DNA of 64,000 nucleotides from Myxococcota bacterium (GTDB lineage Bacteria; Myxococcota_A; UBA9160; UBA6930), in contig JANQOX010000025.1 in assembly GCA_028285625.1 (NCBI GenBank), positions 206,461 to 270,460 of the forward strand, given 5' to 3'. Numbering within the stretch: the stretch's first letter is position 1; every line of letters begins with the position of its first letter. Both the position numbers and the translations under genes were made by a program. Under the pieces are notes generated by a model, which made no database searches, had not been told where the DNA came from, and saw only the letters and a list, made by a program, of their open reading frames with translations. Below are positions 1 through 56,254 of this stretch, piece after piece.

Positions 1-489
1 ATCTCCGGCGGGTCGGCCGGGGGCTACACGGTGCTCTGCGCACTCACGTTTCGCGATGCGTTCGCGGTGGGCGCGAGCCGCTATGGCATCGGGGATCTCG
101 AGGCGCTGGCGCGTGACACGCACAAGTTCGAGTCACGCTACCTGGACGGCCTCGTCGGGGCCTGGCCCGAAGACAAGGCGCGTTACGTGGAGCGCTCGCC
201 GATCCACCACACGGCGGGGCTCTCGTGCCCGGTGATCTTCTTTCAGGGGGGCGAGGACCGCGTCGTGCCGCCGGCCCAGGCCGAAGCCATGGTCGCGGCG
301 TTGGCCGAGCGCGGCCTGCTGCACGCGTACGTGTTGTACCCGGACGAGGGCCACGGATTCCGACGCGCGGCCAACATCCAGCGGAGCCTCGAGGGCGAGC
401 TCTACTTCTACGGACGCGTGCTGGGGTTCGATCCGGGCGTCGATCCGGGGATCGAATTGTCGGGGGCGGCCTCTTCGTCCGCGTCGTAG
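1..489 (+). CDS. S9 family serine peptidase (prolyl oligopeptidase / acylaminoacyl-peptidase type), C-terminal catalytic part; 5' end outside window
   Basis: Frame 1 is open from base 1. Translation begins [12 protein letters not shown] (GxSxGG nucleophile elbow) and continues [14 protein letters not shown] ... YPDEGHGF, the usual S9 Asp/His context. Confidence 0.85.
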
Positions 490-1781
490 AGCGACACCAG
501 CCGTGCCACGAGGACGGCGGGGAAGAAGATGCCCAGTGAGGCCACGCCCGCCGCGAGCATGCGCGCAGGCTCGGTCACGGGCGTGATGTCGCCGTAGCCG
601 GTCGTGGTCAGGGTCATGAAGCTCAGATAGATGAGGTCCCACTCGTTCTGGCCGGTCGTGCCCGAGAGCGCACCCGGTTGCCACAACTCGATCAGCAGGA
701 AGGCGTTGGCGAACATCCAGCCGATCAGGAAGAAGGTCGCTGCTGCGGCCACCAGCGTCGATGAGGTGACCCGGCTGCCGCGGAACTCCCGGCTCGCGAT
801 GCCCAGGATCACGAGGCCGAGCAAGGTCACCTCGGCAGCGGCGCCCGTCGCGCGCACCGCCGTCGGAGCCGCCTCCCAGAGCGCCCCCGTCATCGCGGCG
901 AAGACCAACGCCAGGCCTGCGATGAGCGTGCCGCGCCCGCGGCGGACGGCCATGAGAGCCGCCACCAGCATGGCGCTCTCTGCCAGCGCCAGCAGCCGCC
1001 GTCCCTGACCCGTCTCGAAGGCTGCGCCGGCGACGACCGAGATCACGAGTGCCGCGAGGAGCCAGACCAGCGAGTTCCGGAGCGGGCTGGTGTCGCCGGG
1101 GCGGCGCTGCGGGAACCGGCCGCCCGCGGCGTAGAGCGACACGAGCCGCGCCACGACCATCGAGGGATACAGGATGCCCAGCATGCTCTCGAGAATGACC
1201 AGCGACCGGGCGAGGTCGGCCACGGGAACGATGTCGCCATAGCCCAGCGTCGTGAGCGTGACGAAGCTCATGTAGAGGAGCTCGGAACCGCGGTCGGCCG
1301 AATCCCCTCCGGACGAGAACGCCCCCGGAATGTAGAAGTCGACCAGCAGGAACAGCGTCGCGAACGCGGAAGCGAACAGCATCCAGGAGCACAGCGCGGC
1401 GACGACCGCGTCTTCGCCGATCCGCTCGAGCGTGCCGACGTAGCGAAGCACGTAGATCCCGCCCAGCGAGTAGAGCAGCGTGCGCGCGGCCAGGCCGACC
1501 GGCTCGGCCTCCGGAAGGCTCGGGATCCACAGGCTCGCGAAGGTCGGCAGTGCGAGGACCGCGCCCACGATGAACGCCACGCGCGAGCGGCTCACCGAGA
1601 CGAGGATGGCGATCAGGACGAAGCTCACCGCAAGCGAAGCCAGGGGCGTGGGCTCCGGGAGCAGACTGTCGAGCGAGGCCGCCGCGAGCAGGAAGGCGAG
1701 CGCCACGAAGAGCAGCCGGAAGCGGTAGGCCTCGAGGAGCGCCCAGCGCGATTCAGGACGATCGGGGCCGTGCTCGGTCAT
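408..1781 (-). CDS. Tandem two-pore-domain K+ channel-like membrane protein (two pore modules in one chain)
   Basis: 457 aa with two K+ selectivity filters: TLTTLGYGD (TLGYGD = nt 1233-1250) and TLTTTGYGD (TTGYGD = nt 588-605). Each is followed by a near-identical inner helix ([10 protein letters not shown] / [11 protein letters not shown]) and preceded by several hydrophobic helices. The 3' end overlaps the convergent S9 gene by 82 nt. Confidence 0.85.
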
Positions 1782-1788
1782 GTCCGCC

Positions 1789-3255
1789 TCACTTGTTTGC
1801 TCCGGCCGGGGGTGCGTCCGAACGGTCCGCCGGCCTGGTCTTCACGGGGACGTAGGGCACCTCGACGGCGATCTTGACCAGCTGGCCTTCGTCGAGCATG
1901 GGGTCCCCCCGAAGGCCGTTCATCACCGCCGTGTGAAGCAGCGGCATGGCGTTCTGCGTGCGCCTCGACAGTCCCGAGAGCGTCTCGTTGCCCGTGGCAA
2001 CCGCGATACGCACGCGCTTCTCCTTGACCTTGGCGAGCAGCGCGGGGGTCATGGGCCGGAAGCTCCGCGCGACGTTCCTGAAGAGCGTCTCGAAGCGCGC
2101 CTTCGAAGCGATGCCGACCACCCGGAGGATCTGCCCGCGCCAGGGGATGAAGGTCACCACCATGGTGAGGGGCACGCCCTGGGCACGGACGCCGCCCACC
2201 ACCCGCCAGGCGTCGCGGCCGGCGAGGCGCACGGCCTCGCTGCGGTCGATGCGGACGTGGTGCTCGTGGTTCTCGCCGATCCACTTTTCCGCGGCCTGCG
2301 CGGCATTGTTGCCGGGTCCGCCGTGCTCGACGAACGACTGCGCATCCCGGGTGGGCGCGATCGCGCCCGCGGCGGCGGGTGTGTTGAGGGTGCTCCATCC
2401 GTCGGGAAAGCGGATCGTGAAGCCCATGTCGGGATGCAGAAAGCGCGTTCCGTCGAAGACGCCTTCTGCGCCGCTCTCGCCCACGACGAGGTTCTTCATG
2501 CGGCGCAGGTGATCGGCCGCGCTCGAACTCACGCCCGGCGTGCGCGTCCACTGGATGCTCCCGGCCCTCTGGCCGGCCTCGGCAGCGCGTTCGCGCGTGC
2601 CCGGATGGGTGGCATAGAAGGTCGTGACCCGGAACGTGCCGGTGGTGATGCGCTCGAGGCCGTCGAGCGCGCGGAGGAACCCGACGATGCCAGCGGGGTC
2701 GTAGCCGGAGACCGCCGCGAGCCCCTGACCCATGCGGTCGGCCGTTCGCTCGAGGTCGCGGCTGTAGGCGACCAGCCACGGCTGCTGGAGGAACTGCAGG
2801 AATCGCGACCGAGCGGCCACCTGCTGCTGCGCCGCGGCATGGCGCGAAGCCACGTGGGCAATCTCGTGGCCGATCACCCCGGCGAGTTCGTCCTCGGTGT
2901 TGGAAAACAGCAACGCCCCGCGGCTCAGGAAGATGAAGCCACCGGGAAGCGCGAATGCATTCGGCTCCTGCTGGTCGACGATGTGGAAGGTGTAGTCGAA
3001 CCGGTAGCCCGGAGCGTTGCGGGCCAGCCGCTGGCCGATCTCGTCGACGTAGGCGAGCAGGGCCTCGTCGGTCACCAGGCCGAGCTGCGGGGCCATCTCC
3101 TCGACGGCTTCCTCGCCGACCGCCTCGTCGACGTGGGGCGCCGTCAGATCCGGGGGGGGGCCCTTGCCGGCGGGGGGCCTGCCGCACGCCAAGGCGCCGG
3201 TCAAAGCCGTGACCACGAGCAGGGCGAGAGCGATCGGAGCGCGCGGCCGTTCCAT
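1789..3255 (-). CDS. M48 family zinc metallopeptidase lipoprotein (BepA/Ste24-like), paralog 1
   Basis: Lipobox LTGALAC, then EPNAFALPGGFIFLSRG and HEIAHVASRH (HExxH). It sits 8 nt upstream of the K+ channel gene on the same strand. Confidence 0.9.
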   Translation of the reverse strand: MERPRAPIALALLVVTALTGALACGRPPAGKGPPPDLTAPHVDEAVGEEAVEEMAPQLGLVTDEALLAYVDEIGQRLARNAPGYRFDYTFHIVDQQEPNAFALPGGFIFLSRGALLFSNTEDELAGVIGHEIAHVASRHAAAQQQVAARSRFLQFLQQPWLVAYSRDLERTADRMGQGLAAVSGYDPAGIVGFLRALDGLERITTGTFRVTTFYATHPGTRERAAEAGQRAGSIQWTRTPGVSSSAADHLRRMKNLVVGESGAEGVFDGTRFLHPDMGFTIRFPDGWSTLNTPAAAGAIAPTRDAQSFVEHGGPGNNAAQAAEKWIGENHEHHVRIDRSEAVRLAGRDAWRVVGGVRAQGVPLTMVVTFIPWRGQILRVVGIASKARFETLFRNVARSFRPMTPALLAKVKEKRVRIAVATGNETLSGLSRRTQNAMPLLHTAVMNGLRGDPMLDEGQLVKIAVEVPYVPVKTRPADRSDAPPAGANK

Positions 3256-3299: not shown

Positions 3300-4760
3300 G
3301 TGTTCGATGTCGCAGAGCTGGGCAGCAAGGTGTCGAAGGCGGAGTTCGAGGCCGCGGCCCCCGGGCTGCGCGTCGACCTGCTGAACGCGCAGTTCGACCT
3401 GGCCGGCGCCCCTTTCAGCGTCCTGGTCGTGCTGCTCGGAGACGATCTCCACGGCGTCGACGCGGTGCTCGACCGGCTCCACGAGTGGATGGATGCCCGC
3501 TACATCGACACGCACGTGCTGCTCGAAGCCGAGGACGATGCCGACCGGCCGCCGTTCTGGCGCTTCTGGCGGGCGCTGCCGCCCAGGGGGCGGGTCGGGC
3601 TGTACGTGGGTGGCTGGCCACTCGACGCGTTGAGCCGATGCCTCGGGAGCGACCCCGCCGATGAGGCGGGCTTTGCGCGCGATCTCGATCACCACGAGCG
3701 CTTCGAGGCGGCGCTCGCAGCCGACGGGACGCTGCTTCTGAAGTTCTGGATCCACCTGCCGGAGAAGGAGCACAAGAAGCGACTGAAGCGGCGCGCCAAA
3801 CGCAAACTCCAGCTCGAGGATGCAGACTGGGAGGTCACGCGGCGCTACGAAGACGTGACCCGGCTGGGGGAGAAGCTGATTCAGCGCACCAGCACGTCGC
3901 GCGCGCCCTGGCTCGTCATCGAAGGGACGGATGACCGGCATCGCGACCTGACCGCCGCCCGGGCCGTACGCGACGCGATCCGAGGGCGGCTCGAGGACGG
4001 GGGCGAGACCCAGGCGACGTCGACCGTCTCGGTGGCGTCCGCGCCCGACGCCTTGTCGCAGGTGGACCTCGCCTCCGAGTTGCCGCGAGACGAGTACAAG
4101 CAGCGCCGAGATGCGGCGCAGGAGGCGCTCTTCCAGCTGGCGATCCGGGCGCGTGAGACACGCCGGTCGCCGGTGCTGGTCTTCGAGGGCTGGGATGCAG
4201 CGGGCAAGGGCGGGTGCATCCGGCGCATCACCCAGGCCCTACACGTGCGGGACTATCGCGTCGTGCCGATCGCGGCACCCACCGATGAAGAGCTGGCGCG
4301 GCACTACCTCTGGCGCTTCTGGCGCCAGCTGCCGTTTCCGGGGCGGCTGATCCTCTTCGACCGAAGCTGGTACGGGCGCGTGCTCGTCGAGCGCGTAGAG
4401 GGCTTCGCACGAGAGGACGAATGGCGGCGGGCCTACGATGAGATCAACGACTTCGAGCAGCAGCTCGCCGACGCGGGCATGCCCGTCATCAAGTTCTGGC
4501 TGCACCTCGACCCCGACGAGCAGCTGAGACGGTTTCGCGAGCGCGAGGCCACGGCCTACAAGAAGTACAAGATCACCGAAGAGGACTACCGCAACCGGGA
4601 CCGCTGGGACGAGTACGTCCTGGCCGTGAACGAGATGGTCGCTCGCACCAGCACGCTCTCGGCTCCTTGGACCCTGGTGCCCGCCAACGACAAGAGGTTC
4701 GCGCGGGTGCAGGTGTTGGAGACCGTCTGCGAGCGATTGAAGGAGGCGATGGACTCGTGA
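3300..4760 (+). CDS. ppk2: Two-domain polyphosphate kinase 2 (PPK2; polyphosphate:nucleotide phosphotransferase)
   Basis: The C-terminal domain has VFEGWDAAGKGGCIRRI (Walker A), YLWRFWRQLP and FDRSWYGRVLVERVEGF. The N-terminal PPK2-like domain has a degenerate P-loop (LLGDDLHGVDA) but keeps FWRFWRALPPRG. Confidence 0.9.
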   Translation: MFDVAELGSKVSKAEFEAAAPGLRVDLLNAQFDLAGAPFSVLVVLLGDDLHGVDAVLDRLHEWMDARYIDTHVLLEAEDDADRPPFWRFWRALPPRGRVGLYVGGWPLDALSRCLGSDPADEAGFARDLDHHERFEAALAADGTLLLKFWIHLPEKEHKKRLKRRAKRKLQLEDADWEVTRRYEDVTRLGEKLIQRTSTSRAPWLVIEGTDDRHRDLTAARAVRDAIRGRLEDGGETQATSTVSVASAPDALSQVDLASELPRDEYKQRRDAAQEALFQLAIRARETRRSPVLVFEGWDAAGKGGCIRRITQALHVRDYRVVPIAAPTDEELARHYLWRFWRQLPFPGRLILFDRSWYGRVLVERVEGFAREDEWRRAYDEINDFEQQLADAGMPVIKFWLHLDPDEQLRRFREREATAYKKYKITEEDYRNRDRWDEYVLAVNEMVARTSTLSAPWTLVPANDKRFARVQVLETVCERLKEAMDS

Positions 4761-6265
4761 GCGATCATCCCAGCCACCTCGTGCAGAGCGGGCGCGGGAG
4801 CGCCGCTCGTGGGTGGTGGCCGGTCGTGCTCGGTGCCCTGGTGGCAATCGGGCTCGGCTGCTCGACCAATCCCGCCACGGGCAAGCGCGAGTTCGTCCTG
4901 ATGGGGTCCGATACCGAGGTGGCCATCGGGGAGGAAGAGGCCGTGCGCATCGCGCGCACCATGGGCTTCGCCGACCACCCCACGGTCGGCCCCTACGTGC
5001 GGGCCGTTGGGGAGCGCCTGGCGGCCGTGTCGCCCCGGCAGGATGTGCACCACACCTTCCACGTGGTCGATACGCCGGAGCCCAACGCGTTCGCCCTGCC
5101 CGGGGGGCCGATCTACGTGTCGCGGGGCCTGCTCGCCCTGTTGAACGACGAAGACGAGCTTGCCGGGGTGCTCGCCCACGAGATCGGCCACGTGGCGGCA
5201 CGTCACGCCGTCCAGCGGGCGACCGTGGCCACTCCCTTCGCGATCCTGGCGGGGCTTCCCGCGGCGCTGGTGGGGCGTGTGAGCCAGACGCTGGGCGCGA
5301 TCGTGGCCGCCCCCGGAGCGCTGGCCGGCAACGTGGTGCTCGCGCCGTTCGGCCGTGAGCAGGAGCTCGAAGCCGACCAGCTCGGGGTCGCCATTGCGGC
5401 GCGTGCCGGCTACGACCCGCGCGGGCTGGCGCGGGCGCTCGCGACGCTCGAGCGCGAGGATCGGCTGCGCCATGGCGAAGCGCGCAAGGCGGACTTCTTT
5501 GCCAGCCACCCCACGAACCCCGCCCGCATCAAGAACGTGACCGAGCTGGCTGCGACGCTCACTCCGGTGGCCGCCGACTCGTTCGCAGCCGGCCGCGCCG
5601 GCTACCTGGGCGAGGTCGAGGGCCTGCTGGTCGGGCCCAACCCCGACGCCGGGGTCTTCGTGGACGCGCTCTATGTCCATCCGGATCTGGGCTTCACCGT
5701 GCAGTTTCCCGCCGGCTGGACCACGGAGAACCTGCCGGACCGCGTCGTGGCGTACGACGCCGACAAACAGGGCAAGGTGTTCGCCATGCTCCAGATCGTG
5801 GGAGCAGGCGACGACCCCGCCGCGGGGCCCGAACTCGACGGCCTGGCCGAGTCGCTCCGGAGCGACGTGAAGCTCGCCCCCTCAGGCGAGCGCCCCGCCG
5901 CCCGCTTGTTCACCACGCACCGCGGCACCGCCTTCCACCTGACGTGGCTGGCCCACCGGGGCCAGGTGTATCGGCTCTCGTGCGTCTCTCCGCTCTCCAA
6001 CTTCGAACGCTACCGGGAAGCGTTCGGCCAGCTCGACCGGAGCTTCGCCGAGCTCGACGATGCGGTGTTGGCCCAGGTGCTCGAGGGGCGGCTGCGGTTG
6101 GTGGAGGCCGAAGGAGGCGAACGCCTGCCCGACCTGCTGACCCGCGCCGGGACCGACTGGCGTCCCGAGCTGATGGCGGCGGCCAACGGCCTGGAAGAGA
6201 CCCACCCGCGCCTGCCGGCGGGCTTCCCGGTGAAGATCGTCCGGATGGAGCCGTATTCGCGCTAG
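4757..6265 (+). CDS. M48 family zinc metallopeptidase lipoprotein, paralog 2
   Basis: GTG at 4757 overlaps the PPK2 stop (GTGA). Lipobox VAIGLGC, then EPNAFALPGGPIYVSRG and HEIGHVAARH. The C-terminal domain is colinear with paralog 1 (HPDLGFTVQFPAGW vs HPDMGFTIRFPDGW). The track ORF start at 4667 lies inside ppk2 and was rejected. Confidence 0.85.
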   Translation: MSDHPSHLVQSGRGSAARGWWPVVLGALVAIGLGCSTNPATGKREFVLMGSDTEVAIGEEEAVRIARTMGFADHPTVGPYVRAVGERLAAVSPRQDVHHTFHVVDTPEPNAFALPGGPIYVSRGLLALLNDEDELAGVLAHEIGHVAARHAVQRATVATPFAILAGLPAALVGRVSQTLGAIVAAPGALAGNVVLAPFGREQELEADQLGVAIAARAGYDPRGLARALATLEREDRLRHGEARKADFFASHPTNPARIKNVTELAATLTPVAADSFAAGRAGYLGEVEGLLVGPNPDAGVFVDALYVHPDLGFTVQFPAGWTTENLPDRVVAYDADKQGKVFAMLQIVGAGDDPAAGPELDGLAESLRSDVKLAPSGERPAARLFTTHRGTAFHLTWLAHRGQVYRLSCVSPLSNFERYREAFGQLDRSFAELDDAVLAQVLEGRLRLVEAEGGERLPDLLTRAGTDWRPELMAAANGLEETHPRLPAGFPVKIVRMEPYSR

Positions 6266-6953: not shown

Positions 6954-7874
6954 GTGCTGCGCCGGTTCGTCCCGATCGCCGTGTTCGCCCTGGCTGCAGG
7001 CTGCGCCACGCCCGAGCCGCTGACGCAGCTGCACGCCTACGTCTGGGCCGCCCAAGAAGAGGTGCGTGTCTTCCTGTGCCGATGGCCCGATGGCGCGCGG
7101 GTCGGCGTGTCCCTGCCGCAGCAGGGGCCCGAAGCCATGCGCGAGGCCGCGGCCGCCGCCCTGGCCGCGTGGCAGCGGGTGGACCTGCCGATCGATCTCG
7201 TCGAAGAAGTGCCCGAGCGCGCGCAGATCGAGGTGCGGCTGGTAGACGGTGCCATCCGCCGGGACGACGGCCGCGCCGGCAGTGGCCGCGGTTTCGCCGA
7301 CTGCCGCGTCGGCGAGGGCGGCCCCGACCAGCTTCACGGAGCGCGCGTCGAAGTCGCCGTGCGCTCGGCTCCGGACGCGCGCGGCCACATCCACGAGCAC
7401 ACGCCCGAAGTCGTGGCCGGCACCGTGCTTCACGAACTCGGGCACGCGCTCGGCTACCAGGGTCACCCGCGCGGCGGGCGTGACGAGCCCATGGTTCGCG
7501 AGGCCGATGCACTGAGGCGACTGGGACGCCGCGTGCTGGCCGGCAAGCGCATCGACTCGCCCGAGGTTCGGGCGCTCTACGCGCGGCCGACCGGTGCGAC
7601 GCTCTTGCGGGCCCCGGTGTCGCGCTGGCGAACCGAGCCCGTGGACCAGCTCGCACCGCTCGCGCGTGCCGATGGGTTGGAGGGGCCGTTCGTGCGATCG
7701 GGCGACGCCTGGGGCCGCATCCTATGGCGCGGCGCCGCAGGACAGGAGCTCGGGATCTGGCTCCCCAACCTGCTCGAGGCCTACGATGACCCCACACGCA
7801 TCCTGCTGGTGCCCGACCCGGCGAGCCGCGAGCGCATCGAGCGCGGTGCCGGCCTGGGTTCAGCCGGGCCGTGA
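6954..7874 (+). CDS. Zinc metalloprotease lipoprotein (HExxH, metzincin-like)
   Basis: A GTG start at 6954 gives M-LRRFVPIAVFALAAGC (lipobox). Motif VLHELGHALGYQGH. The first ~227 codons of the track ORF (from 6273) are antisense to the previous gene and were rejected. Confidence 0.75.
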   Translation: MLRRFVPIAVFALAAGCATPEPLTQLHAYVWAAQEEVRVFLCRWPDGARVGVSLPQQGPEAMREAAAAALAAWQRVDLPIDLVEEVPERAQIEVRLVDGAIRRDDGRAGSGRGFADCRVGEGGPDQLHGARVEVAVRSAPDARGHIHEHTPEVVAGTVLHELGHALGYQGHPRGGRDEPMVREADALRRLGRRVLAGKRIDSPEVRALYARPTGATLLRAPVSRWRTEPVDQLAPLARADGLEGPFVRSGDAWGRILWRGAAGQELGIWLPNLLEAYDDPTRILLVPDPASRERIERGAGLGSAGP

Positions 7875-9296
7875 CCGCCCGATCTCGGCCTCGACGACGG
7901 CGATGCGCTGCCGCCAGAGGGGCTCCTGCGGAGCGAGCGCGGAGGCCTTCTCGAGGTGCTCCGATGCGCGCTCGAGCTCGGGGGGGCTCTTCTTGAACAG
8001 GCACCAGCCGAGGGCGCCCTGGTAGTCGGCCTCTTCGGGCCAGAGCTCGACCGAGGGCTCCAGGAACTCGACGGCACCGAGAAAGTTGCCGGCCTTCATC
8101 AGGATCTCGGCCTTGCGGTAGAGCATCTCCGCCTGCGCGATGCGATCCGCATCCTCGACGGCATGGCCTTCGAGGGTCGCATCGTAGTCGCGTCGGGCGT
8201 CCGGGTCCGAGAGTGTGGTGTGTGCGCGTGTGATCTGGGCGAACACCTCGGTGGCGGCTTCCTTCACCTGGTGGAGCCCCTTCTGGGCGATCGCGTCGGG
8301 GTGGAGCCGCTTGGCGAGCTTCAGGTAGGCGCGCTTGATCTTGCCGGGAGGAACGTCGCGCGCCACGCCGAGCAGCTCGTAGTGGTCGATCTCCGAGAGT
8401 CGCGCGAGCAGTCCCTCGACCTCTTCGCGTAGCTTGCGCTGTGCGGGGTCTTCGTGGTCGGGGTCCGCCTCCTCGGTCCGGGCCCGGGTCTGCGCGGCCG
8501 CAGCGCCGTCGGCGCCGCCCGCGACGGCGATCTCGATCTCGGGCAGGAGCGCCAGCTCCTCCTCCGGCTCGGCCTCGACGGGCTCGAGTGTGGGGTCGGC
8601 CTCGCGGGGTGTCGCCTGCCAGGCGAGCAGGCCGAGCTGGTCGTAGACCACCAGCGCGGCGCCGGCGCGGGCCGCGTGCTCGCCCTTGACCATCGCGAAC
8701 GTGGCCATGCGGCCGTTCAACATGGCCCGGAGCGCATCGAGGTCCGGGGTGGCGGGCAGGAGTTTCTCCAGTGCGCCGGGATCGTCCGCGGGCTCCGGGA
8801 ACGCGCTCACCTTGTCGCCGAGCAGATCGAGCAGTTCGTGGGGTCGCCACCGGGCGAGCGTCTCGAAGGCCACGCCCGCGGGCTCGACCCCCACCAGCGG
8901 AACGTCCTCGCCCCCGGCGGCCGGCTCGAGCGAGAAGCTGCCCATCGTGAAGCCGCACAGCGACTGCAGGCAGGCCTGGGTGGCGGCCCGGATGCCGCCC
9001 ACGAGATCGCGCGGCGAGAGCTTGCGAAGCTGCGCGATCGCCTTGAGCTCGCCGTCGCCTGCGGCGCAGCGCGCCTTGATGCGGCCGAGGTCGGCTTCGT
9101 CCAGCAGGCCCTGGGTCACCAGCCGCTCTGCGAGCCCGTCTTCGGGTCGGCTCGACTCCGCGCGCAGCGCCATGCCCGACTCGAGGCTGATTCGCAGGCG
9201 CAAGGCACCCTGGGACACGGCAAGCACGCCGCTGAACCGCTCTCGCCGCAGACCGAGGATCAACAGCGGCGCAGGGGTCTTGGCCAGGTCACCCAT
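7860..9296 (-). CDS. DUF4388-like N-domain / J-domain / TPR protein (DnaJ-class co-chaperone)
   Basis: J domain DHYELLGVARDVPPGKIKRAYLKLAKRLHPD with an HPD motif. The C-terminus is TPR-like (AEILMKAGNFLGAVEFLEPSVELWPEEADYQGALGWCLFK). The N-terminus LLILGLRRERFSGVLAVSQG is typical of DUF4388. Confidence 0.85.
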   Translation of the reverse strand: MGDLAKTPAPLLILGLRRERFSGVLAVSQGALRLRISLESGMALRAESSRPEDGLAERLVTQGLLDEADLGRIKARCAAGDGELKAIAQLRKLSPRDLVGGIRAATQACLQSLCGFTMGSFSLEPAAGGEDVPLVGVEPAGVAFETLARWRPHELLDLLGDKVSAFPEPADDPGALEKLLPATPDLDALRAMLNGRMATFAMVKGEHAARAGAALVVYDQLGLLAWQATPREADPTLEPVEAEPEEELALLPEIEIAVAGGADGAAAAQTRARTEEADPDHEDPAQRKLREEVEGLLARLSEIDHYELLGVARDVPPGKIKRAYLKLAKRLHPDAIAQKGLHQVKEAATEVFAQITRAHTTLSDPDARRDYDATLEGHAVEDADRIAQAEMLYRKAEILMKAGNFLGAVEFLEPSVELWPEEADYQGALGWCLFKKSPPELERASEHLEKASALAPQEPLWRQRIAVVEAEIGRSRPG

Positions 9297-10301: not shown

Positions 10302-11429
10302 TCAGACCTCCAGGAACGCGTGGATGTCGAACTTCTGCTCCTTGCGCACGAAGCCCTCGCCTTCGTGCTCGAGCAGCTGCAGCATCGCGTCCACACAGGT
10401 GGGGTCGAACTGGCTGCCCGAGTACTTGTGCAGCTCGCGAATCACCACGTCCAGGTCGAGGCCCTTGCGGTAGGGCCGGTCGCTGGTCATGGCCTCGACC
10501 GTGTCGGCCACGAGGATGATCCGGGAGGGAAGCGGGATCTGATCGCCCCGCAGGCGCATGGGATAGCCGCGCTCGCAGCCGTCGTACCACTCGTGGTGGT
10601 GGCGGACGCACTCGACCACGTCGGCCAGGAAGTTCACCGGGGTGAGGATGCGCGCACCGATCTCCGGGTGCTGCTTGATCTCCTCGTACTCCTCGGGGGT
10701 GAGGCGGTCCGGCTTCGTGATGACGGCGTCCCGGACCCCGATCTTGCCCACGTCGTGGAGCAGGCCCGAGATGTAGACGCGCTCGATCAGCTCGCGCGGC
10801 AGGCCCAGCTCTCGGCCCATCTTCGAGGCGTAAACACCGACGCGCTCGGAGTGGCCCCGGGTATAGGCGTCCTTGGCGTCGACGGCCTCGGACAGCGCGC
10901 GAATCGTCTGGATGTACGCGATCCGCAGCTCCTGGTGCTTCTCGCTCACCTGCTTGGTCCGCTCGCGGACCTTGCCCTCCAGGTTGCGATTCATGTCCTG
11001 GAGCTTCAGGTTCTGCTCGCGCGTGACCTGGTTCAGCCGCTTGATCTCGTTCTTGAGGTCGAAGTGGTCGAAGGCCTGCCGCAGGATCGCCTTCAGCTCT
11101 TCATCGTTCCACGGCTTCGTGATCAGCCGGTAGATCTCACCGCGGTTGATCGCGTCGACGGCAACGCCCATCTCGGTGTACCCGGTGAGCATCATGCGCA
11201 CGAGGTCGGGGTGACGCGTGCGGATCGCCGCGAGCAGGTCGACGCCGCTCATCTCGGGCATGCGCTGGTCGGTCACCACCACCTGGGTGGGCGTGTTCTC
11301 GAGAATCTCGAGCGCCTCGCTGCCGCGCGACGCGGTGAGCACCTGCCACGGCTCGTTGCGCAGCAGGCGCTGCACGGCCTTCAGGATGTTCACCTCGTCG
11401 TCCACGAACAGGACGGTGTGCTCGGCCAT
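10302..11429 (-). CDS. Response regulator with HD-GYP c-di-GMP phosphodiesterase domain (RpfG-like)
   Basis: REC domain: VLFVDDEVNILK...VVVTDQRMPEMSGVDLL...MMLTGY. HD-GYP domain: HSERVGVYA, LLHDVGKIG, HHEWYDGCERGYP. The start MAEHTVLFVDD at 11429 is preceded by GAGGGGGA. Confidence 0.9.
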   Translation of the reverse strand: MAEHTVLFVDDEVNILKAVQRLLRNEPWQVLTASRGSEALEILENTPTQVVVTDQRMPEMSGVDLLAAIRTRHPDLVRMMLTGYTEMGVAVDAINRGEIYRLITKPWNDEELKAILRQAFDHFDLKNEIKRLNQVTREQNLKLQDMNRNLEGKVRERTKQVSEKHQELRIAYIQTIRALSEAVDAKDAYTRGHSERVGVYASKMGRELGLPRELIERVYISGLLHDVGKIGVRDAVITKPDRLTPEEYEEIKQHPEIGARILTPVNFLADVVECVRHHHEWYDGCERGYPMRLRGDQIPLPSRIILVADTVEAMTSDRPYRKGLDLDVVIRELHKYSGSQFDPTCVDAMLQLLEHEGEGFVRKEQKFDIHAFLEV

Positions 11430-11468
11430 TCGGGTCCCCCTCGGCGCGTGGCGCCGGGGGGCTTCCAA

Positions 11469-11484
11469 TACAAGGGTCGTGCCA
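11469..11484 (-). promoter_or_regulatory. Candidate sigma-54 (-24/-12) promoter for the HD-GYP operon
   Basis: The minus strand reads TGGCAC-GACCC-TTGTA (consensus TGGCAC-N5-TTGCW; the -12 element is GT rather than GC), about 40 nt upstream of the ATG at 11429. Confidence 0.4.
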
Positions 11485-11862
11485 TCCACGCCCGCTCGAT
11501 TCCGGGGCAGTTTGCTCCATGATTCCGAGGGTTTGGGGGGTTGCTTCGAAGTTGCCGGTCGAACCCTGGGTCCCGGCTTCGGGACGCCCCCCTGCAGCCC
11601 GCCGGAAGCGGACGCGCAGGCTGCTCATCGCCTTCCTGCAGCCTGCGCGACGGGGTGGGTGCACCGCAGGCGCCAAGTCCCCGGAACCCCACGGGCTGCG
11701 AGGCGCGTGTCGGTCTCACCGTCGGTGGGCGAGGGTTCTCCCGCAATCGCGTGATCCCGCGTGTGGGACTTCCCGGATGCGGGAGGTCGCCGTTGCGCGC
11801 GCGCTGCAGCGCTGATGCACCGTCGGTGCGCGGGCGCCGCGCATCGATCCGAGGGTGTGGGC

Positions 11863-20872: not shown

Positions 20873-22078
20873 ATGAGTTGCCGGTCGCTTGCAGCACTCC
20901 TGCTCGGTCTGTGGTTCGTACTCGGTTGGGCTGCCCGCGCAGAGACGCCGGGCGACGCCTATCTGCTGGAGGACCCGCGCCTCGAGCCGATCTCGATCGA
21001 GGCACTGCTCGCCCAGCCGCCGCGGTTTCGCTTTCCGCCCGGAGAACGCGTGGTCTGGCAGGTCCGCTACCTGGGCATCCCCGTCGGTCGCGTCACGAAG
21101 CGGGTGGCCCGCTTCGTCGAGCTGGATGGCCAGCGTCTGGCCCACGTCGTGGCCACCGCGCGCACCAACGAGGTGTTCTCGCTTCTCTACAAGCTCGACG
21201 ACCGCGCCGAAGCCTGGATCGACGTCGACACCCTGCGTACGGTGCAGACGGCGACGCTGACCCGCCACCGCAGCGCGCGCGAGGTCTATGAGGAGGTCGC
21301 CTTCGACTGGGAGTCGCGCCTCGTCCACGTGCTCGAGGACAAGCGCAGCAAGCGGGTTCGCGAACTCAGCCTCGGCCTTGGCGATCACCTGCACGACACG
21401 TTCGACCTGGTGTACGCGATCCGCGCGCTGTCTCTCGAGGACGGCCAGCATGCGGCGTTTCCGGTGTACGCCTCGGGCAAGATCTATGGCCTCGAGCTAC
21501 GCGCGCGTCGCACCACGCCAGTGGTGCACCCCGTGCTGGGCACCGTGGAGGCGGTCGAGCTGCGACCCCGCAACCTGCTCGACGGCGAGCCGCAGTCGGA
21601 CGGCCGTGGTCGGATCGTGATGTCGGCCGAGGGGCGCCACGTGCCGCTCTCGCTCCGGGGCTGGATGCGCGCCTACACCGGGATCCGGATCGGGGGGATC
21701 ACAGGCGACCTCCTCGCCTACGAGCCGGGCGATCCCGCCTGGGAGGCGCTTCCGCTGCGCGCCGAGGCCCCCCGGAGCGGGTTGCCGCAGACCGAGAACG
21801 GCCGCCTGATCGCGCGCCCCACCCGAGAGCTGAGGGCGGCTCGCGAGCGCACGGGCGTTGCGCGGGTCGACCGCAAGCACTGGTCGATCAGCCTCGAGAG
21901 CCTCGTCACGTGCGATCCGCCGGCGAGCGTGTCGCGGTTCGCGCGTACGCCGGGCCAGCGGGGGGTCGAGGCGCCGCCCTGTCGTGCGCCCGTGATGGCC
22001 GACCGGCCGGGTCCGGCCCTGGCGGAGGGCCGGGTCGATGGGCTCGCCGAAGGCCAGCCCGGAGGGTTCGGGAGCTAA
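20873..22078 (+). CDS. DUF3108 domain protein (secreted)
   Basis: ATG at 20873. Signal peptide MSCRSLAALLLGLWFVLGWAARA. WQVRYLGIPVGRV and the following beta-rich region are typical of DUF3108. Confidence 0.7.
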   Translation: MSCRSLAALLLGLWFVLGWAARAETPGDAYLLEDPRLEPISIEALLAQPPRFRFPPGERVVWQVRYLGIPVGRVTKRVARFVELDGQRLAHVVATARTNEVFSLLYKLDDRAEAWIDVDTLRTVQTATLTRHRSAREVYEEVAFDWESRLVHVLEDKRSKRVRELSLGLGDHLHDTFDLVYAIRALSLEDGQHAAFPVYASGKIYGLELRARRTTPVVHPVLGTVEAVELRPRNLLDGEPQSDGRGRIVMSAEGRHVPLSLRGWMRAYTGIRIGGITGDLLAYEPGDPAWEALPLRAEAPRSGLPQTENGRLIARPTRELRAARERTGVARVDRKHWSISLESLVTCDPPASVSRFARTPGQRGVEAPPCRAPVMADRPGPALAEGRVDGLAEGQPGGFGS

Positions 22079-23835
22079 CGCTCGACCTCGAGCAGTTCGG
22101 CCCAGGCGCCGTCGGACTCGCCGGCCAGGCAGTGCACCAGCTTGTCCGCGGTCATGGGTTCGGCCAGCAAGAACCCCTGGGCCCGGTGACAGCCCAGGTC
22201 GCGCACGGCGTGAAGCTGCTCTCGCGTCTCGACGCCCTCGGCCACGACGTTGCAGCCGAGCCCGCGCGCCATCGTCAGCATGCCTTCGACCACCGCGCGG
22301 TCGAGCGAGGACGAGGGCAGGCCCGCCACGAACGTGCGGTCGATCTTCAGCGCATCGAGCGGCAGCCGCCGCAGGGCCTGGATGGTCGCGAAGCCCGTTC
22401 CGAAGTCGTCCAGTGCGGCTCGCACCCCCGCGCGCCGCAGCCTGCGCAGGTTCTCGATGCCGCGCTCCTTCTCGTGGATCGCCACGCTCTCGGTGATCTC
22501 CAGCTCGAGCAGCGCCGGGTCGAACGCCTGGTCGCGCAGCACCGAGTTCACGAGATCGGGAAAGCGCGCGTCGGCGAGTTGCTGTCCCGAGACATTCACG
22601 GCGATCGGCAGCGGTCCATGGCCGGCTGCGGAGATCTCGACGATCTCCTTCACCGCCTGGCGCAGCACCCACTCGCCGATGGCCCCGATCATGCCCAGCC
22701 GCTCGGCCTCCTCGACCAGGCGCGCCGGGCTTCCGCCGGGCCCATCCGGGGCTTCCCAGCGAAGCAGGGCTTCGGCGCCCACGATCTCGCCCGTCGTGAG
22801 ATCGACCTGCGGCTGGTAGTTCAGCGTCAGTTCGTTCCGATCGAGCGCCCTGCGTAGGAGCGCCCCCGACCGCATGCCCAGCGCGAGCTGCGGTCGCATG
22901 CCGTGGGCGTAGAAGGCGTGGCGATCACCGCCACTGCCCTTGGCCTCGCCCATCGCCAGCTCGGCGTGGCGCAGCAGCGTGTCGGCGTCGTCACCGTCGT
23001 CGGGAAAGCGTGCGATGCCCAGCGTCGATTGGACGCGGTGTTCGACGTCGCCTACGACGATCGGCTCGGCGAGGGATTCGATCAGGCGCCTGGCCACGAC
23101 CTCGAGCCCGTCTCGGCTGCTCGGGTCCTGGGCCATCATCACGAACTCGTCACCCCCCAGGCGCGCCAGGACGTCGCTCGAACGGGAGGCTTCGCTCATG
23201 CGTCGGGCCAGGGTGCGGAGCAGTTCGTCGCCCACGGCGTGCCCGTGGCGGTCGTTCACCTGGTGGAACGCGTCGAGGTCGACGAAGAGCACCGCCAGCG
23301 GGGTGCCCGCACGGCGCGCCCTGGGCAGGGCCTCTTCGAGGCGCTCGAGAAACGCGTAACGATTGAGTAGTCCGGTGAGCGCGTCGTGGGTGGCGAGAAA
23401 GTACTCCTGCCGGCGAGCGTCGCGAAGGTCGCGCAGGACCCGGTGGCGCTCGATCGCGTTCAGCACCATGCCGACGAAGCTGCGTCCGCCACGGCCCTTG
23501 ACCGCGTACTCCTGTGCGCCGAGGCCTACGGCGTCGAGCGCGAGATCCTGGTCGTCGCGATCCGACATCACGATCACGGGGATCGAGGGCGCGGCTTCCT
23601 TGGCCCGCATCAGCGCCGTCATGCCATGGCCGTCGGGCAACGACAGGTCGAGCAGGAACACCTGGTAGCCGCCGGCCGCCGTGGCGTGCAACGCCTCTTC
23701 GAGCGTGCGGACCCGGTGGCACGAGAAGCGGAACTCGTCGTGGTCCTCCAGCAGGCTCTGGAGCGCCTGCGCGTCCGCATCGTCGTCCTCGGCGAGCAGG
23801 ACGCGGATCACGGGCCGGGAGAGGCGGGACTCCAT
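22075..23835 (-). CDS. Response regulator REC-GGDEF-EAL (c-di-GMP turnover)
   Basis: REC domain: VLLAEDDDAD...FLLDLSLPDGHG. Intact GGDEF: LARLGGDEFVMMA. EAL domain: YQPQVDL...GAEALLRW, DDFGTGFA. Confidence 0.92.
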   Translation of the reverse strand: MESRLSRPVIRVLLAEDDDADAQALQSLLEDHDEFRFSCHRVRTLEEALHATAAGGYQVFLLDLSLPDGHGMTALMRAKEAAPSIPVIVMSDRDDQDLALDAVGLGAQEYAVKGRGGRSFVGMVLNAIERHRVLRDLRDARRQEYFLATHDALTGLLNRYAFLERLEEALPRARRAGTPLAVLFVDLDAFHQVNDRHGHAVGDELLRTLARRMSEASRSSDVLARLGGDEFVMMAQDPSSRDGLEVVARRLIESLAEPIVVGDVEHRVQSTLGIARFPDDGDDADTLLRHAELAMGEAKGSGGDRHAFYAHGMRPQLALGMRSGALLRRALDRNELTLNYQPQVDLTTGEIVGAEALLRWEAPDGPGGSPARLVEEAERLGMIGAIGEWVLRQAVKEIVEISAAGHGPLPIAVNVSGQQLADARFPDLVNSVLRDQAFDPALLELEITESVAIHEKERGIENLRRLRRAGVRAALDDFGTGFATIQALRRLPLDALKIDRTFVAGLPSSSLDRAVVEGMLTMARGLGCNVVAEGVETREQLHAVRDLGCHRAQGFLLAEPMTADKLVHCLAGESDGAWAELLEVER

Positions 23836-52831: not shown

Positions 52832-53748
52832 ACGCGTACCCGCGAGAGTGCACGCATGGCCATGAAGCCCACGCCCTCGAGCACGAGTGCTGCCAGCAGC
52901 AGGGCCCGGCCCGTGGGCGCCTCGAAGAGCGGCGCCACGTAGGCGGGGCGCAAGAGCGCGATGCCCACCATGAACACGAGCGGCAGGAGCGCCAGGACGA
53001 TTGCGGTGGCGCGTCCTTCAGCGGTGACCGCACGCACGTCGCGCCGAAACACCACGCGCTCACGCAGGGTGGCGGCGAGCCGCTCGAGGATGTGGGCCAG
53101 GTTGCCGCCGGTTTCACGCTGCAGCACCAGCGCGGCCACCAGGAAGCGCACCTCGGCCACGCCCGGGTAGCGTTCGGCCAGCCCGCGAACCGCCCGCTCG
53201 AAGGGCGCGCCCAGTCGGAACTCTTCCTCCACCCGTCGCAGCGCACGGCCCACCGGATCGGGCATGCGTTCCCCCGCTTCGCGCAGCGCGGCATCCATGG
53301 GCTGGCCCGAGCGGATCGCCCGCGCGACCACGTCGATCGCCTCGGGTAGCTGGGCCTGAAGGGCCTCTTCGCGGCGGCCGCGCCGCGCTCGAAGGGAGGC
53401 ACAGCCGCCGAGGGGCGTGGCGATGCCTGCCAGGAGCGCCCAGCCGATCGAGCCGGATAGGGCGAGCGCGATGGTACCCAGGGCGATGGAGAGCCCGCCG
53501 AGGGCGGCCAGGAAGCGGGAGGGAGCCATCGCGATCCCGGCGCCGTCGAGAAGTGTCGGCAGCGACAGCCACACGGCCAGCGTCTCGAGCGGCGGGGTGG
53601 CCGCAGGATCCGGTTCGTGCGCAAGTTGGGGGCGCAACGGCGCGAGCGCTTCGATCACCTGGGTGCGGCGGCGGCTGCGCAGGTCGGCACGCCACAGCCA
53701 CACCCCCAGGGCGAGCAGGGTCAGCGCCGTCACGGCCGCGACGATCAC
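52828..53748 (-). CDS. tadB: Flp pilus assembly inner-membrane protein TadB (T2SS F family)
   Basis: QLPEAIDVVARAIRSGQPMDAAL...LVLQRETGGNLAHILERLA. Confidence 0.85.
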   Translation of the reverse strand: MIVAAVTALTLLALGVWLWRADLRSRRRTQVIEALAPLRPQLAHEPDPAATPPLETLAVWLSLPTLLDGAGIAMAPSRFLAALGGLSIALGTIALALSGSIGWALLAGIATPLGGCASLRARRGRREEALQAQLPEAIDVVARAIRSGQPMDAALREAGERMPDPVGRALRRVEEEFRLGAPFERAVRGLAERYPGVAEVRFLVAALVLQRETGGNLAHILERLAATLRERVVFRRDVRAVTAEGRATAIVLALLPLVFMVGIALLRPAYVAPLFEAPTGRALLLAALVLEGVGFMAMRALSRVRV

Positions 53749-55109
53749 GGCGCCCGCCTCGGTGCCGATGCCTTCTCGAAGGCGAGCAGGCCGTCGGGCA
53801 GGGCGTGGCCGGTGGCGGCCAGCCGATCCTCGAAGCGCGAGGCCTCGCCCAGGCCGCGGAAGGTGCCGAACACCCGGCCCTCGTCGTCGACGCCGCGCTG
53901 CTCGAAGACGATCCGTTCTTCGAGGCGCGCGCGTTCGCCGTCCATCCCGACCATCTCCGAGATCGAGACGATGCGCCGGCTCCCGTCGGAGAAGCGTGCG
54001 AGCTGAACGACCACGTCGACGGCGCTGGCGATCAGGCGGCGGACGGCCTGCTCCGAGAACCCCGAGGTGCCCATGCTGGCCATCACCTCGATGCGCGAAA
54101 GGGCATCGCGTGGGTTGTTCGCGTGGACCGTGCTCATCGAGCCCGGGTGGCCCGTGTTCATCGCCTGCAGCATGTCCATGACCTCGGCGCCGCGGGCCTC
54201 GCCGACGATGATGCGATCCGGGCGCATGCGCAGACTGTTCTTCACCAGGTCCGAGAGCTGGACCTCGCCACGCCCTTCGAGGTTGGGCGGGCGAGACTCC
54301 AGCGTGACCACGTGGGGCTGGCGAAGCCGAAGCTCGGCGCTGTCCTCGATGGTGAGGATCCGCTCGGTCGGAGGGATGTAGTCGGAGAGCGCATTCAGCA
54401 GCGTGGTCTTGCCCGAGCCGGTGCCTCCCGAGATCAGCACGTTCAGCCGGGCCCCGACGGCGGCGGCGAGGTAGCGCTGCATCTCGTCGGTGAAGGCGCC
54501 CCCGTCGAGCAGGTCGTCGGCGCCGAGCGGGTCGCGCCCGAACTTGCGGATCGAGATGGCGGGGCCCCCGAGCGCGAGAGGCGGCAGGATCACGTTCACC
54601 CGCGAGCCGTCGGCGAGCCGCGCGTCGACCATGGGCGAGGCCTCATCCACGCGCCGGCCCACGGCCGCCACGATGCGGTCGATCACCTGGCGCAGGTGCG
54701 CCGCATCGCGGAACCGCACGTCGGTGCGGTGGAGGACGCCGGAGCGTTCGACGTAGACGTCGTCGGGCCCGTTCACGAGCACGTCCTGCACCTCGGGATC
54801 GCGAATCAACGTCTCGAGCGGACCGAGGCCGAGGACCTCGTCGACCAGCTCGCTCACCAGGCGCGCACGCTCGCCCCGGTTGAGCGGGACGTGGGTCTCG
54901 CTGGCGATCTGGACCAGCGCTTCGCGGACCTCGCGTTCGAGCGCTCCGCGGTCGCGCGGACCGGCGGCATCGAGATCGAGCGAGGCGACCAGGGCCTCGT
55001 GCACGCGATCCTTCAGCAGGTCGAACTCGCTGGTCGCGTCGAGGACCTGCGCGGCGGCCTCGGTGGGCAGGGCAGCGTCGCCACCCCGAAGACGTTCGGC
55101 GAGCCTCAT
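53745..55109 (-). CDS. cpaF: Flp pilus assembly ATPase CpaF/TadA
   Basis: ATG at 55109 overlaps the cpaE stop. LISGGTGSGKTTLLNAL (Walker A), RILTIEDSAEL, RMRPDRIIVGEARG, GHPGSMSTVHAN. Confidence 0.93.
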   Translation of the reverse strand: MRLAERLRGGDAALPTEAAAQVLDATSEFDLLKDRVHEALVASLDLDAAGPRDRGALEREVREALVQIASETHVPLNRGERARLVSELVDEVLGLGPLETLIRDPEVQDVLVNGPDDVYVERSGVLHRTDVRFRDAAHLRQVIDRIVAAVGRRVDEASPMVDARLADGSRVNVILPPLALGGPAISIRKFGRDPLGADDLLDGGAFTDEMQRYLAAAVGARLNVLISGGTGSGKTTLLNALSDYIPPTERILTIEDSAELRLRQPHVVTLESRPPNLEGRGEVQLSDLVKNSLRMRPDRIIVGEARGAEVMDMLQAMNTGHPGSMSTVHANNPRDALSRIEVMASMGTSGFSEQAVRRLIASAVDVVVQLARFSDGSRRIVSISEMVGMDGERARLEERIVFEQRGVDDEGRVFGTFRGLGEASRFEDRLAATGHALPDGLLAFEKASAPRRAP

Positions 55110-56254
55110 TGCCCGGTTCCGCCGAACAGCCGGCGCCACCACGCGGTGGCCTCGGGCTGGGCCTGTCCGAGCAGGTGGGCGGCGAGGGCGTCGATCGCGC
55201 GCGAGGCGTCCGCCTCGGCGTCGATCCGGCCGATCGGCCGGCGTTCGCGCGCCGCAGCTGCCCACAAAGAGCGGTCCTCGGCGATCTGCGCGACGGGCTC
55301 GTACCCGATGATGCGCTCGAGGTCAGCGGGCCGGATGTCGTCGCCGGCCGCAGTGCGCGTGAGCACGACCTCGACCGCTGCCGTCGCCCCGATCTCGTTC
55401 ACGAACTCGAGCGCGGCCTGGGCGCGGCGCAGGCTCGCCGGAGAGGGCGTCACCACCAGCAGGATCCGGTCGGCGGCCTCGAGCGCGCAGAGCACGGGAC
55501 GCGAGAAGTCGTGCGGCAGGTCGAGCACCAGATGGTCGAGGTGGGATCGCAGCGTCGCGAGCAGCGAGGCCAGCGGTCCTGCGCCCACGCCCTCGGCATC
55601 CTGAACGGCGCCTTCGCAGGTGGAGAAGCGGAAGCCGTCGCCCTCGTACCGCGCGAGCGTTGCGTCGAGCAGTTCGCGATCGAGTCGGTCGAGACGGCCG
55701 AGGAGCTCGTGGGGCCCGGCCGGGCAGGGGCCCGCGAGCCAGCTTCCCAAGCCGCCTACGTACAGGTCGAGATCGAGCAGGAGGACCTCGCCCCCGCTGC
55801 GCACGTGCAGCCGGTCGGCGAGGGCCGCGCAGAGGCTCGTCGAGCCCGCGCCACCCGAGGGCGCGAATACGGCCGTGACCGTGGCGCCCGACTGGCCCGT
55901 GACGTCGAGACAACGGTCGACCGCCGAGCGAAGCGCGCCCGCTGCGCCGTCGCGTGTGGCGAGGTCGCGTGCGCCGGCGCGAAACGCGGCGAGGACGACC
56001 TCGGTGGGGGCTTCGTCCGCGAGCGCGAGGATCGGGAGCTCCGGTGCGGCCTCGCGTAGCCGAGCGACCCAGCCGAGCGCGCGTTGGGCGTCGGGCGCGA
56101 GGTCGACCACCACGAGCTTCGCGCCGCCTTCGGCAACCCGGCCCAACGCCTGCTCGACCGTCTCGGCAGCCGCGAAGGGGCCCGCGTCGTTTCCGAGCTC
56201 GCCCATCAGCCAGCGCAGGCTCGCCTGCTTCTCGGAAAGGACGACCAGGCTCAT
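55106..56254 (-). CDS. cpaE: CpaE/TadZ-like protein (REC-like N-domain + MinD/ParA-like domain with degenerate P-loop)
   Basis: N-terminal receiver-like KLVVVDLAPD...PILALAD. At the P-loop position it reads VFAPSGGAGSTSL instead of KGGxGKT. The rest is colinear with MinD/ParA-like proteins (VLLLDLDL...LVLDLPH). Confidence 0.75.
   Translation of the reverse strand: MSLVVLSEKQASLRWLMGELGNDAGPFAAAETVEQALGRVAEGGAKLVVVDLAPDAQRALGWVARLREAAPELPILALADEAPTEVVLAAFRAGARDLATRDGAAGALRSAVDRCLDVTGQSGATVTAVFAPSGGAGSTSLCAALADRLHVRSGGEVLLLDLDLYVGGLGSWLAGPCPAGPHELLGRLDRLDRELLDATLARYEGDGFRFSTCEGAVQDAEGVGAGPLASLLATLRSHLDHLVLDLPHDFSRPVLCALEAADRILLVVTPSPASLRRAQAALEFVNEIGATAAVEVVLTRTAAGDDIRPADLERIIGYEPVAQIAEDRSLWAAAARERRPIGRIDAEADASRAIDALAAHLLGQAQPEATAWWRRLFGGTGQ

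Follow-up and report, generated by a model that had tools for sequence, protein, structure and literature searches.

Can a bacterium encode a K+ channel subunit with more than one pore domain? In textbooks, multi-pore-domain K+ channel subunits, namely those of K2P (two-pore-domain K+), TPK, TOK and tandem Kv-like channels, belong only to eukaryotes. Reviews state that prokaryotes are without two-pore-domain K+ channels, and none turned up when 270 prokaryotic genomes were surveyed in 2005 (PMC2234077). A paper on plant TPK channels calls bacterial channels 'predominantly' single-pore and refers briefly to second pores among a few photosynthetic bacteria (PMC8619664). The question is raised anew by a gene near the start of a 64,000-nt stretch of Myxococcota bacterium DNA (contig JANQOX010000025.1 of assembly GCA_028285625.1, positions 206,461 to 270,460; hereafter the window), since a first-pass annotation of the window had recognised two pore modules in the 457-residue chain that it encodes. 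Phrase searches of the literature returned no published description of, or experiment on, a bacterial tandem two-pore K+ channel.

Direct reading and Pfam bore out both pore modules, each with a canonical selectivity filter (T-L-G-Y-G-D in repeat 1 and T-T-G-Y-G-D in repeat 2; Table 1), and direct reading also confirmed that the helices following the two filters are nearly identical. Pfam placed two PF07885 (Ion_trans_2) stretches in the chain (E = 1.6e-25; 89 bits versus a cut-off of 22.5), which places the window protein in the K+ channel pore superfamily (Ion_trans_2/VIC). Pfam matched no RCK/TrkA, cyclic-nucleotide-binding or TrkH domain in the 457 residues. No NCBIfam model scored above its cut-off, with sub-threshold matches only to Kch and a methanogen hyperpolarisation-activated channel, and the tandem channel is without a curated family in that collection. 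When the two halves were aligned with each other they shared 39% identity across 176 residues (E = 4e-28). Because of this alignment, an origin of the chain by internal duplication, as first proposed from the letters alone, is in our reading of the sequence certain. The GC content at third codon positions (GC3) of the open reading frame (ORF) is 0.91, like that of the adjoining genes, with an overall GC content of ∼70%. As the ORF is uniform in GC3 and runs in a single frame, it is therefore native coding sequence throughout. An origin of the channel gene from foreign DNA was ruled out, since its GC and GC3 equal those of the surroundings. We hold the sequence-level architecture of the tandem channel with very high confidence.

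The predicted structure of the chain follows the same two-fold plan. AlphaFold2 (AF2), run on the full chain with the tandem alignment (predicted local distance difference test, pLDDT, 85.8; predicted template-modelling score, pTM, 0.86), gave seven helices per half, namely four helices followed by an outer, a pore and an inner helix. A model of one half (residues 1–225), made with AF2 on a 100-sequence alignment, reached a pLDDT of 92.2. Together, the AF2 models and hydropathy set at four the number of hydrophobic helices ahead of each pore module, which had previously been put at about four to five. All Lys and Arg residues of the loops lie on the predicted cytoplasmic face and none in external loops, and the models fit a topology of six transmembrane helices (6TM) per half with both termini inside (N-in/C-in) and a cytoplasmic linker of 14 residues. 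With this topology the cytoplasmic linker can therefore lead from S6 in the first repeat to S1 in the second. The window protein is thus modelled as having twelve transmembrane helices and two P-loops (12TM/2P), i.e. two S1–S6 units, plus two pore helices.

Neither repeat resembles a voltage sensor in its charges. S4 holds two Arg (R100 and R113), as does S4′ (R310 and R331), without RxxR periodicity, and no acidic countercharges were found in S2 and S3. Together with the Pfam result, this agrees with the initial observation that the chain lacks RCK/TrkA, cyclic-nucleotide and voltage-sensor Arg-repeat signatures. The S4–S5 link between helix 4 and the outer helix comprises 5 residues. The loop between outer and pore helix has 10 residues in repeat 1 (aa 151–160) and 12 in repeat 2; because these loops are so short, there is no extracellular cap. 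When the half model was compared with the PDB using Foldseek, only non-domain-swapped 6TM channels were matched (SthK, LliK, hERG, Eag1, AKT1, GORK, SKOR and CNGA3; probability 1.00, TM-scores 0.41–0.55, E from 1e-3 to 1e-2). Domain-swapped Kv channels and KvAP gave TM-scores of 0.30–0.33 in this comparison, for which the model was a monomer only. A sequence-profile search of the PDB detected the pore alone (KirBac3.1, KvLm, TOK, K2P1, NaK and KcsA).

The SynK-type unit and the tandem family

SynK of Synechocystis sp. PCC 6803 is a 'core-only' 6TM K+ channel with neither evenly spaced charges in S4 nor any regulatory domain, which is K+-selective in Chinese hamster ovary (CHO) cells, rescues E. 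coli LB2003, a strain deficient in K+ uptake, and forms multimers up to tetramer size that resist sodium dodecyl sulphate (Zanetti et al. 2010, PMC2853561). With a SynK query sequence rebuilt from Figure S1 of that paper, hhalign aligned SynK residues 8–223 to the profile of the repeat unit (A2; probability 99.9%, E = 9e-37, 210 columns), and BLASTP matched SynK to each half of the window protein at 32–33% identity (E = 7e-16 and 6e-15). The window protein is therefore a member of the SynK family, and these alignments identify its repeat unit as a SynK-type core-only 6TM bacterial channel, of which the window protein is a tandem variant. The predicted K+ conduction is thereby linked to a homologue that has been characterised by experiment. 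Shared with SynK are six helices and a P-loop, the lack of evenly spaced S4 charges and of a cytoplasmic regulatory domain, the TLGYGD filter, the hinge Gly and the ...VARLVSLY end of S6. In contrast, SynK is a single 234-aa unit that must tetramerise, whereas the window protein holds two diverged units (39% identical) in one chain.

Fused relatives were found in large sequence collections. Among 5.8 billion proteins, a word-indexed search found the window protein and ∼19 tandem relatives of 351–456 aa at 33–42% identity, and after these single-pore relatives of ∼255 aa. When 1.84 billion cluster representatives were searched exhaustively with a profile, 17 full-length co-linear two-pore proteins (409–457 aa; E from 1e-158 to 1e-101) and two fragments were retrieved; at E ≤ 1e-30 the search gave 3,041 representatives, nearly all of them single-pore proteins of 200–250 aa. 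In total, ∼30 tandem cluster representatives from independent NCBI, JGI, ENA and Logan assemblies are uninterrupted two-pore ORFs. At the level of species genomes, such ORFs are present in at least three, comprising two Myxococcota metagenome-assembled genomes (MAGs) and one MAG labelled Spirochaetaceae, a lower bound because the scan was pattern-based; they also stand on independent JGI, ENA and Logan contigs. The window channel protein itself is identical on two contig records. The fusion is genuine and conserved in relatives, and tandem two-pore K+ channels appear from these searches to be rare but recurrent in bacteria. In public records the tandem proteins are annotated simply as 'ion channel' or 'potassium channel family protein', and the label 'two pore domain potassium channel family protein' sits on single-pore relatives.

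Conservation extends over both repeats. In an alignment of 18 sequences both filters, both hinge glycines and a GG..PF motif in the linker are conserved. The first filter (P1) reads TTLGYGD in 28 of 30 two-pore family members and the second (P2) TTTG[F/Y]G[D/E] in 26 of 30, with Phe in 19. The halves are equally conserved, both in S1–S4 (0.44 versus 0.43) and in the pore (0.64 versus 0.62); therefore, neither half is decaying.

Neighbour-joining trees of the halves pointed to more than one duplication. Within the core tandem family, N-halves and C-halves formed separate clades (bootstrap 73% and 94%) with mirrored internal topologies, which indicates a single old duplication followed by co-divergence of the halves. 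In seven further two-pore proteins (P0055, P0056, P0057, P0058, P0063, P0066 and P0069) the halves were closest to each other, with within-protein identities of 28–68%, and in four of these proteins they were sisters at 93–100% bootstrap. Because of this sister grouping, at least four other lineages appear to have duplicated the SynK-type unit independently, and the recurrence of independent fusions argues that such fusions are functional. One of the clusters concerned includes a protein of a cultured isolate, Bradyrhizobium sp. 1(2017), where WP_246741101.1 (480 aa) is an intact ORF on the complete chromosome CP050022.2; further ones stem from Myxococcota and Eremiobacterota MAGs. On balance, we favour the view that tandem duplication of a bacterial SynK-type channel took place at least five times independently, with one old, mainly Myxococcota-like lineage that carries a fixed asymmetric GYG/GFG filter ring.

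Several observations were made on individual members of these groups. The Bradyrhizobium tandem gene (4001–5443 of locus L087, which spans 3207268–3216710 of CP050022.2) has halves that are ∼61% identical, is of independent origin and sits just downstream of a gene for a phospholipase-D-like protein with two domains. For that strain GenBank also has an older record, QIO37371.1, a 220-aa 'two pore domain potassium channel family protein' that shares a 90% cluster with WP_246741101.1. Two metagenomic tandems have non-canonical filters, GTLGLGD and AALGLGD in P0058 and GTLGIGD and ASLGLGD in P0066, and their ion selectivity may be altered. Free-standing single-pore genes were seen at 1176–1817 of L088 and 679–1359 of L089. 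Among single-pore proteins, P0068 clusters with the tandem family's N-halves and P0060 with its C-halves; free-standing genes of these two kinds may be relatives that predate the fusion, or may stem from later fission. P0070 resembles a chimera whose front is that of an N-half and whose back is of the single type.

Proposed assembly, conduction and gating

We propose that head-to-tail duplication and fusion of a SynK-type core-only 6TM K+ channel gene gave rise to the tandem subunit, each half of which runs from an uncharged S1–S4-like bundle through a short S4–S5 link to a pore module made of outer helix, pore helix, canonical TxGYGD filter and an inner helix that bears the conserved hinge Gly. 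A K+ pore needs four P-loops; therefore, a single pseudo-fourfold pore should be built by two chains, with P1 and P2 in alternation around its axis. Since the difference between P1 and P2 is fixed across the family, the filter would be a 2+2 heteromeric ring, with an asymmetry akin to that of K2P (GYG/GFG) and TOK channels that would have been reached independently. Gating would be intrinsic to the pore (inner-helix bundle and/or filter), together with the lipid-facing S1–S4 bundles. Pore-intrinsic gating is most likely because the chain has no cytoplasmic ligand-binding domain and no S4 gating charges. Such a channel might provide a leak-type or weakly regulated conductance, selective for K+, by which membrane potential or K+ balance is set; this is the least certain step. 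To our knowledge, all natural two-P-loop K+ channels (K2P, TOK and TPK) and engineered concatenated K+ channel dimers assemble as dimers. Judging from the sequence, we consider an obligate-dimer, pseudo-fourfold K+ channel without ligand or voltage sensor to be likely. Dimer stoichiometry, K+ conduction and gating mode are what we infer, as is everything on the tandem channel beyond its sequence anatomy.

Several points weigh against this proposal. The structural likeness of a half to 6TM channels is moderate (TM-score ∼0.5, E ∼1e-3), and the S1–S4 region has no sequence-detectable relative of solved structure in the PDB profile search. With the whole chain, Foldseek found no significant match in the PDB (E ≥ 0.056, TM-score ≤ 0.30). 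This search is uninformative because no solved chain has a two-repeat non-swapped layout, and one half was therefore modelled separately. How the two pore modules pack against each other is a matter of prediction, from AF2 models of monomers only. One family member, P0019 (MGI9430969.1, from a Myxococcota MAG), has TTTGFCD as its second filter, where Cys stands in for the final filter Gly. Either the sequence is in error here, or the second pore of this member is disabled or unusual. The gating mode, even if most likely as stated, is a guess, made because the chain has no known sensor domain, and is the weakest step. Finally, co-assembly with single-pore paralogues encoded elsewhere in the genome keeps a small probability.

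Four other explanations of the locus were weighed against a dimeric tandem K+ channel. If two adjacent single-pore genes had been joined by an error of sequencing, assembly or annotation (a lost stop or a frameshift), there would be no tandem subunit at all. Such loci can be called either way, as the clustering of the 220-aa Bradyrhizobium record with the 480-aa RefSeq protein illustrates, and single genes resembling only an N-half or only a C-half do exist. However, the window ORF lies in one frame with uniform GC3 and its protein is identical on two contig records, the ∼30 tandem representatives are all fused, with the GG..PF linker conserved and no split seen among them, at least three species genomes carry uninterrupted ORFs, and in the revised complete chromosome of Bradyrhizobium the 480-aa ORF is intact. 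A mis-join is effectively refuted by these observations and we assign it virtually no probability. An alternative that keeps the tandem subunit and changes its partners is unlikely, but less easily set aside: one tandem chain could assemble with two single-pore SynK-type subunits, pair with a tandem paralogue as a heterodimer, or form a tetramer with two pores or with one module outside the pore. The abundance of single-pore relatives (the 3,041 representatives above), some of them N-half-like or C-half-like only, makes partners of this kind conceivable. On the other hand, the 64-kb window contains no second ORF with a K+ filter, the two pore modules are conserved to the same degree and their filters are intact, as would be so if each of them lined the pore, and natural as well as engineered two-P-loop K+ channels are generally known to dimerise.

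The remaining two alternatives concern what the protein conducts and where it came from. It might be a non-selective or non-conducting protein, or a membrane sensor or scaffold, as the GLGD and GIGD filters of the independent tandems P0058 and P0066 and the Thr at position 2 of the second window filter (TTGYGD), where Val, Ile or Leu is usual, could suggest. Both window filters nevertheless keep the T-x-G-Y/F-G-D signature, the pore-helix aromatics and the hinge Gly, and the homologous single unit SynK is experimentally K+-selective (PMC2853561), so that a protein of this kind seems very unlikely. Membership of the eukaryotic K2P/TPK lineage, through horizontal transfer or as its direct ancestor, would account for the two P-loops per chain and for the Tyr of P1 and the frequent Phe of P2, a pattern found in many K2Ps. 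The Y-F type of pore helix is common to the SynK family, Kcv, TPK and K2P (PMC2853561). In contrast, K2P chains in the PDB profile search gave only pore-confined matches (E = 6e-5 or weaker), no better than those to KirBac, KvLm or NaK, the halves nest among bacterial single-pore proteins, and the composition is native at 70% GC. The closest sequence relatives of the window protein are bacterial tandem and single-pore proteins and not K2Ps. With 12 helices rather than 4 and no cap domain, the chain also departs from the K2P architecture that the first-pass annotation had assigned to it; that assignment does not hold, as the protein is 12TM/2P and not 4TM/2P and its relatives are bacterial single-pore proteins. 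We therefore regard descent from, or direct ancestry of, the K2P/TPK lineage as extremely unlikely, and retain a dimeric K+ channel of bacterial origin as the preferred explanation.

Gene features and genomic neighbourhood

The features of the channel gene and its surroundings are collected in Table 1.

Table 1. Features of the channel gene and of neighbouring genes (nucleotide positions within the window; aa, residues of the encoded protein)
Feature	Position	Strand	Basis
Tandem two-pore (12TM/2P) K+ channel subunit (predicted), complete ORF, 457 aa plus stop, ATG start	408..1781	-	ORF list, two Ion_trans_2 stretches, GC3, AF2
Repeat 1 S1–S4-like four-helix bundle, aa 12–117, without gating-charge repeat	1431..1748	-	AF2 helices 12–38, 47–62, 67–85, 92–117
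Repeat 1 pore module: outer helix aa 123–150, pore helix 161–176, filter, inner helix 189–218	1128..1415	-	Pfam, PDB profile matches, AF2
Selectivity filter 1, T-L-G-Y-G-D, aa 178–183	1233..1250	-	Direct reading
Inter-repeat linker, predicted cytoplasmic, aa 219–232, Arg-rich (three Arg)	1086..1127	-	AF2 coil between helices 189–218 and 233–254
Repeat 2 S1′–S4′-like four-helix bundle, aa 233–332	786..1085	-	AF2 helices 233–254, 259–279, 283–301, 307–332; aligns with repeat 1
Repeat 2 pore module: outer helix aa 340–367, pore helix 380–391, filter, inner helix 404–437	471..764	-	Pfam, PDB profile matches, AF2
Selectivity filter 2, T-T-G-Y-G-D, aa 393–398	588..605	-	Direct reading
C-terminal tail aa 438–457 plus stop, non-conserved, low confidence	408..470	-	pLDDT 54–62; homologues without tail
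GAGG Shine-Dalgarno, 5 nt upstream of channel ATG, overlapping the M48 TGA stop	1787..1790	-	Direct reading
M48 peptidase, 488 aa, lipoprotein-like N-terminus, co-oriented upstream of channel	1789..3255	-	Pfam PF01435
S9 (prolyl oligopeptidase family) gene, 3′ part, convergent, runs off window start	1..489	+	Pfam PF00326; 644-aa gene called on L001
PPK2 polyphosphate kinase, 486 aa	3300..4760	+	
Second M48 paralogue	~4757..6265	+	
DUF4388-DnaJ fusion protein	7860..9296	-	
Response-regulator HD-GYP protein	10302..11489	-	
REC-GGDEF-EAL protein	22075..23835		
Ammonium_transp (Amt) ORF, 844 aa	33320..35854	-	Domain only at residues 448–840
Tad/Flp pilus cluster: CpaF ATPase, secretin with pilus N-terminal domain, RcpC/CpaB	53745..58670	-	

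The channel gene lies downstream of a co-oriented M48 peptidase gene, as had been noticed at the outset; the gap is 7 nt rather than the 8 nt given then, since the M48 stop codon occupies 1789–1791 and the channel ATG is at 1781. Because of this short gap and because no promoter or terminator match was found between the two genes, they are probably co-transcribed. A conserved M48–channel operon was ruled out, as the neighbours differ in the homologous loci L002–L004 and L082–L086. The M48 and S9 context is not conserved in relatives, and no functional coupling is therefore drawn from it. On the other side, the 3′ ends of the channel gene and the convergent S9 gene overlap by 82 nt (408–489), within the non-conserved, low-confidence tail of the channel.

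Two M48 paralogues flank the PPK2 gene. This polyphosphate kinase gene is the only recurring neighbour and also adjoins the tandem channel gene in the relative L082 (6407–7873). Further into the window, the Amt ORF either has a 447-residue N-terminal extension or reflects an over-extended start in high-GC DNA. The CpaF of the Tad/Flp cluster has its best relatives, at 60–69% identity, in 'Deltaproteobacteria' and Desulfobacterota MAGs. At such identities the host is without near kin among sequenced genomes; it would be a delta-type bacterium, uncultured and probably related to Myxococcota. The window is ordinary chromosome with ordinary signalling content, which includes the DUF4388-DnaJ, HD-GYP and REC-GGDEF-EAL proteins, and is consistent with a Myxococcota-like host.

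Significance and comparison with other multi-pore channels

If true, the proposed channel would overturn the review statement that prokaryotes have no two-pore-domain K+ channels. It would also offer a bacterial model, and possibly an evolutionary precedent, for the passage from a tetramer to a pseudo-symmetric dimer that is represented by K2P, TPK, TOK and TPC channels. A conserved bacterial 12TM/2P family, and likewise the repeated independent fusions, would mean that homotetramers turn into pseudo-symmetric dimers easily and repeatedly, and that eukaryotes did not invent this step. As a small prokaryotic protein (∼430–460 aa, without soluble domains), it would suit the study of selectivity and filter gating where GYG stands next to GFG, and it would allow the role of an uncharged S1–S4 bundle to be asked.

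Animal K2P channels are 4TM/2P proteins (M1-P1-M2-M3-P2-M4) with an extracellular cap. With these K2P/KCNK channels and the plant TPK channels the window protein shares two P-loops per chain, the lack of a voltage sensor, the expected pseudo-fourfold dimer and the non-identity of P1 and P2, with Y in P1 and frequently F in P2. It differs from both in its three-fold larger number of helices, in the missing cap and in its independent bacterial origin. The known prokaryotic example of several K+ channel-like P-loops in one polypeptide is the TrkH/KtrB/HKT group. Those proteins, however, have four 2TM (M-P-M) repeats with degenerate single-Gly filters and are transporters with partner subunits, whereas the window protein has two 6TM repeats with full TxGYGD filters and is Ion_trans_2 by Pfam.

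Closer parallels are found among channels with larger repeats. Fungal TOK1 (8TM/2P) is likewise a dimeric two-P-loop K+ channel with unequal filters (PMC13323377), and its pore is among those detected by sequence; it joins a 6TM unit to a 2TM unit, whereas the window protein consists of two complete 6TM units. Tandem Kv-like channels and channels with a cyclic-nucleotide-binding domain (CNBD) that have a 2 x 6TM layout are described in protists (Pozdnyakov et al. 2020, PMC7576140). These protist channels and TPC1–3 share with the window protein two S1–S6 repeats per chain, the 12TM/2P layout and the expectation of a dimer. Unlike it, they are eukaryotic and have charged S4 sensors, with EF-hands or CNBDs in some. 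The TPCs are moreover Na+/Ca2+-selective and domain-swapped, whereas the window protein has canonical K+ filters and a 5-residue S4–S5 link, and its best structural matches are non-swapped. In overall layout, the window protein is closer to the TPCs and the protist tandem Kv-like channels than to K2P.

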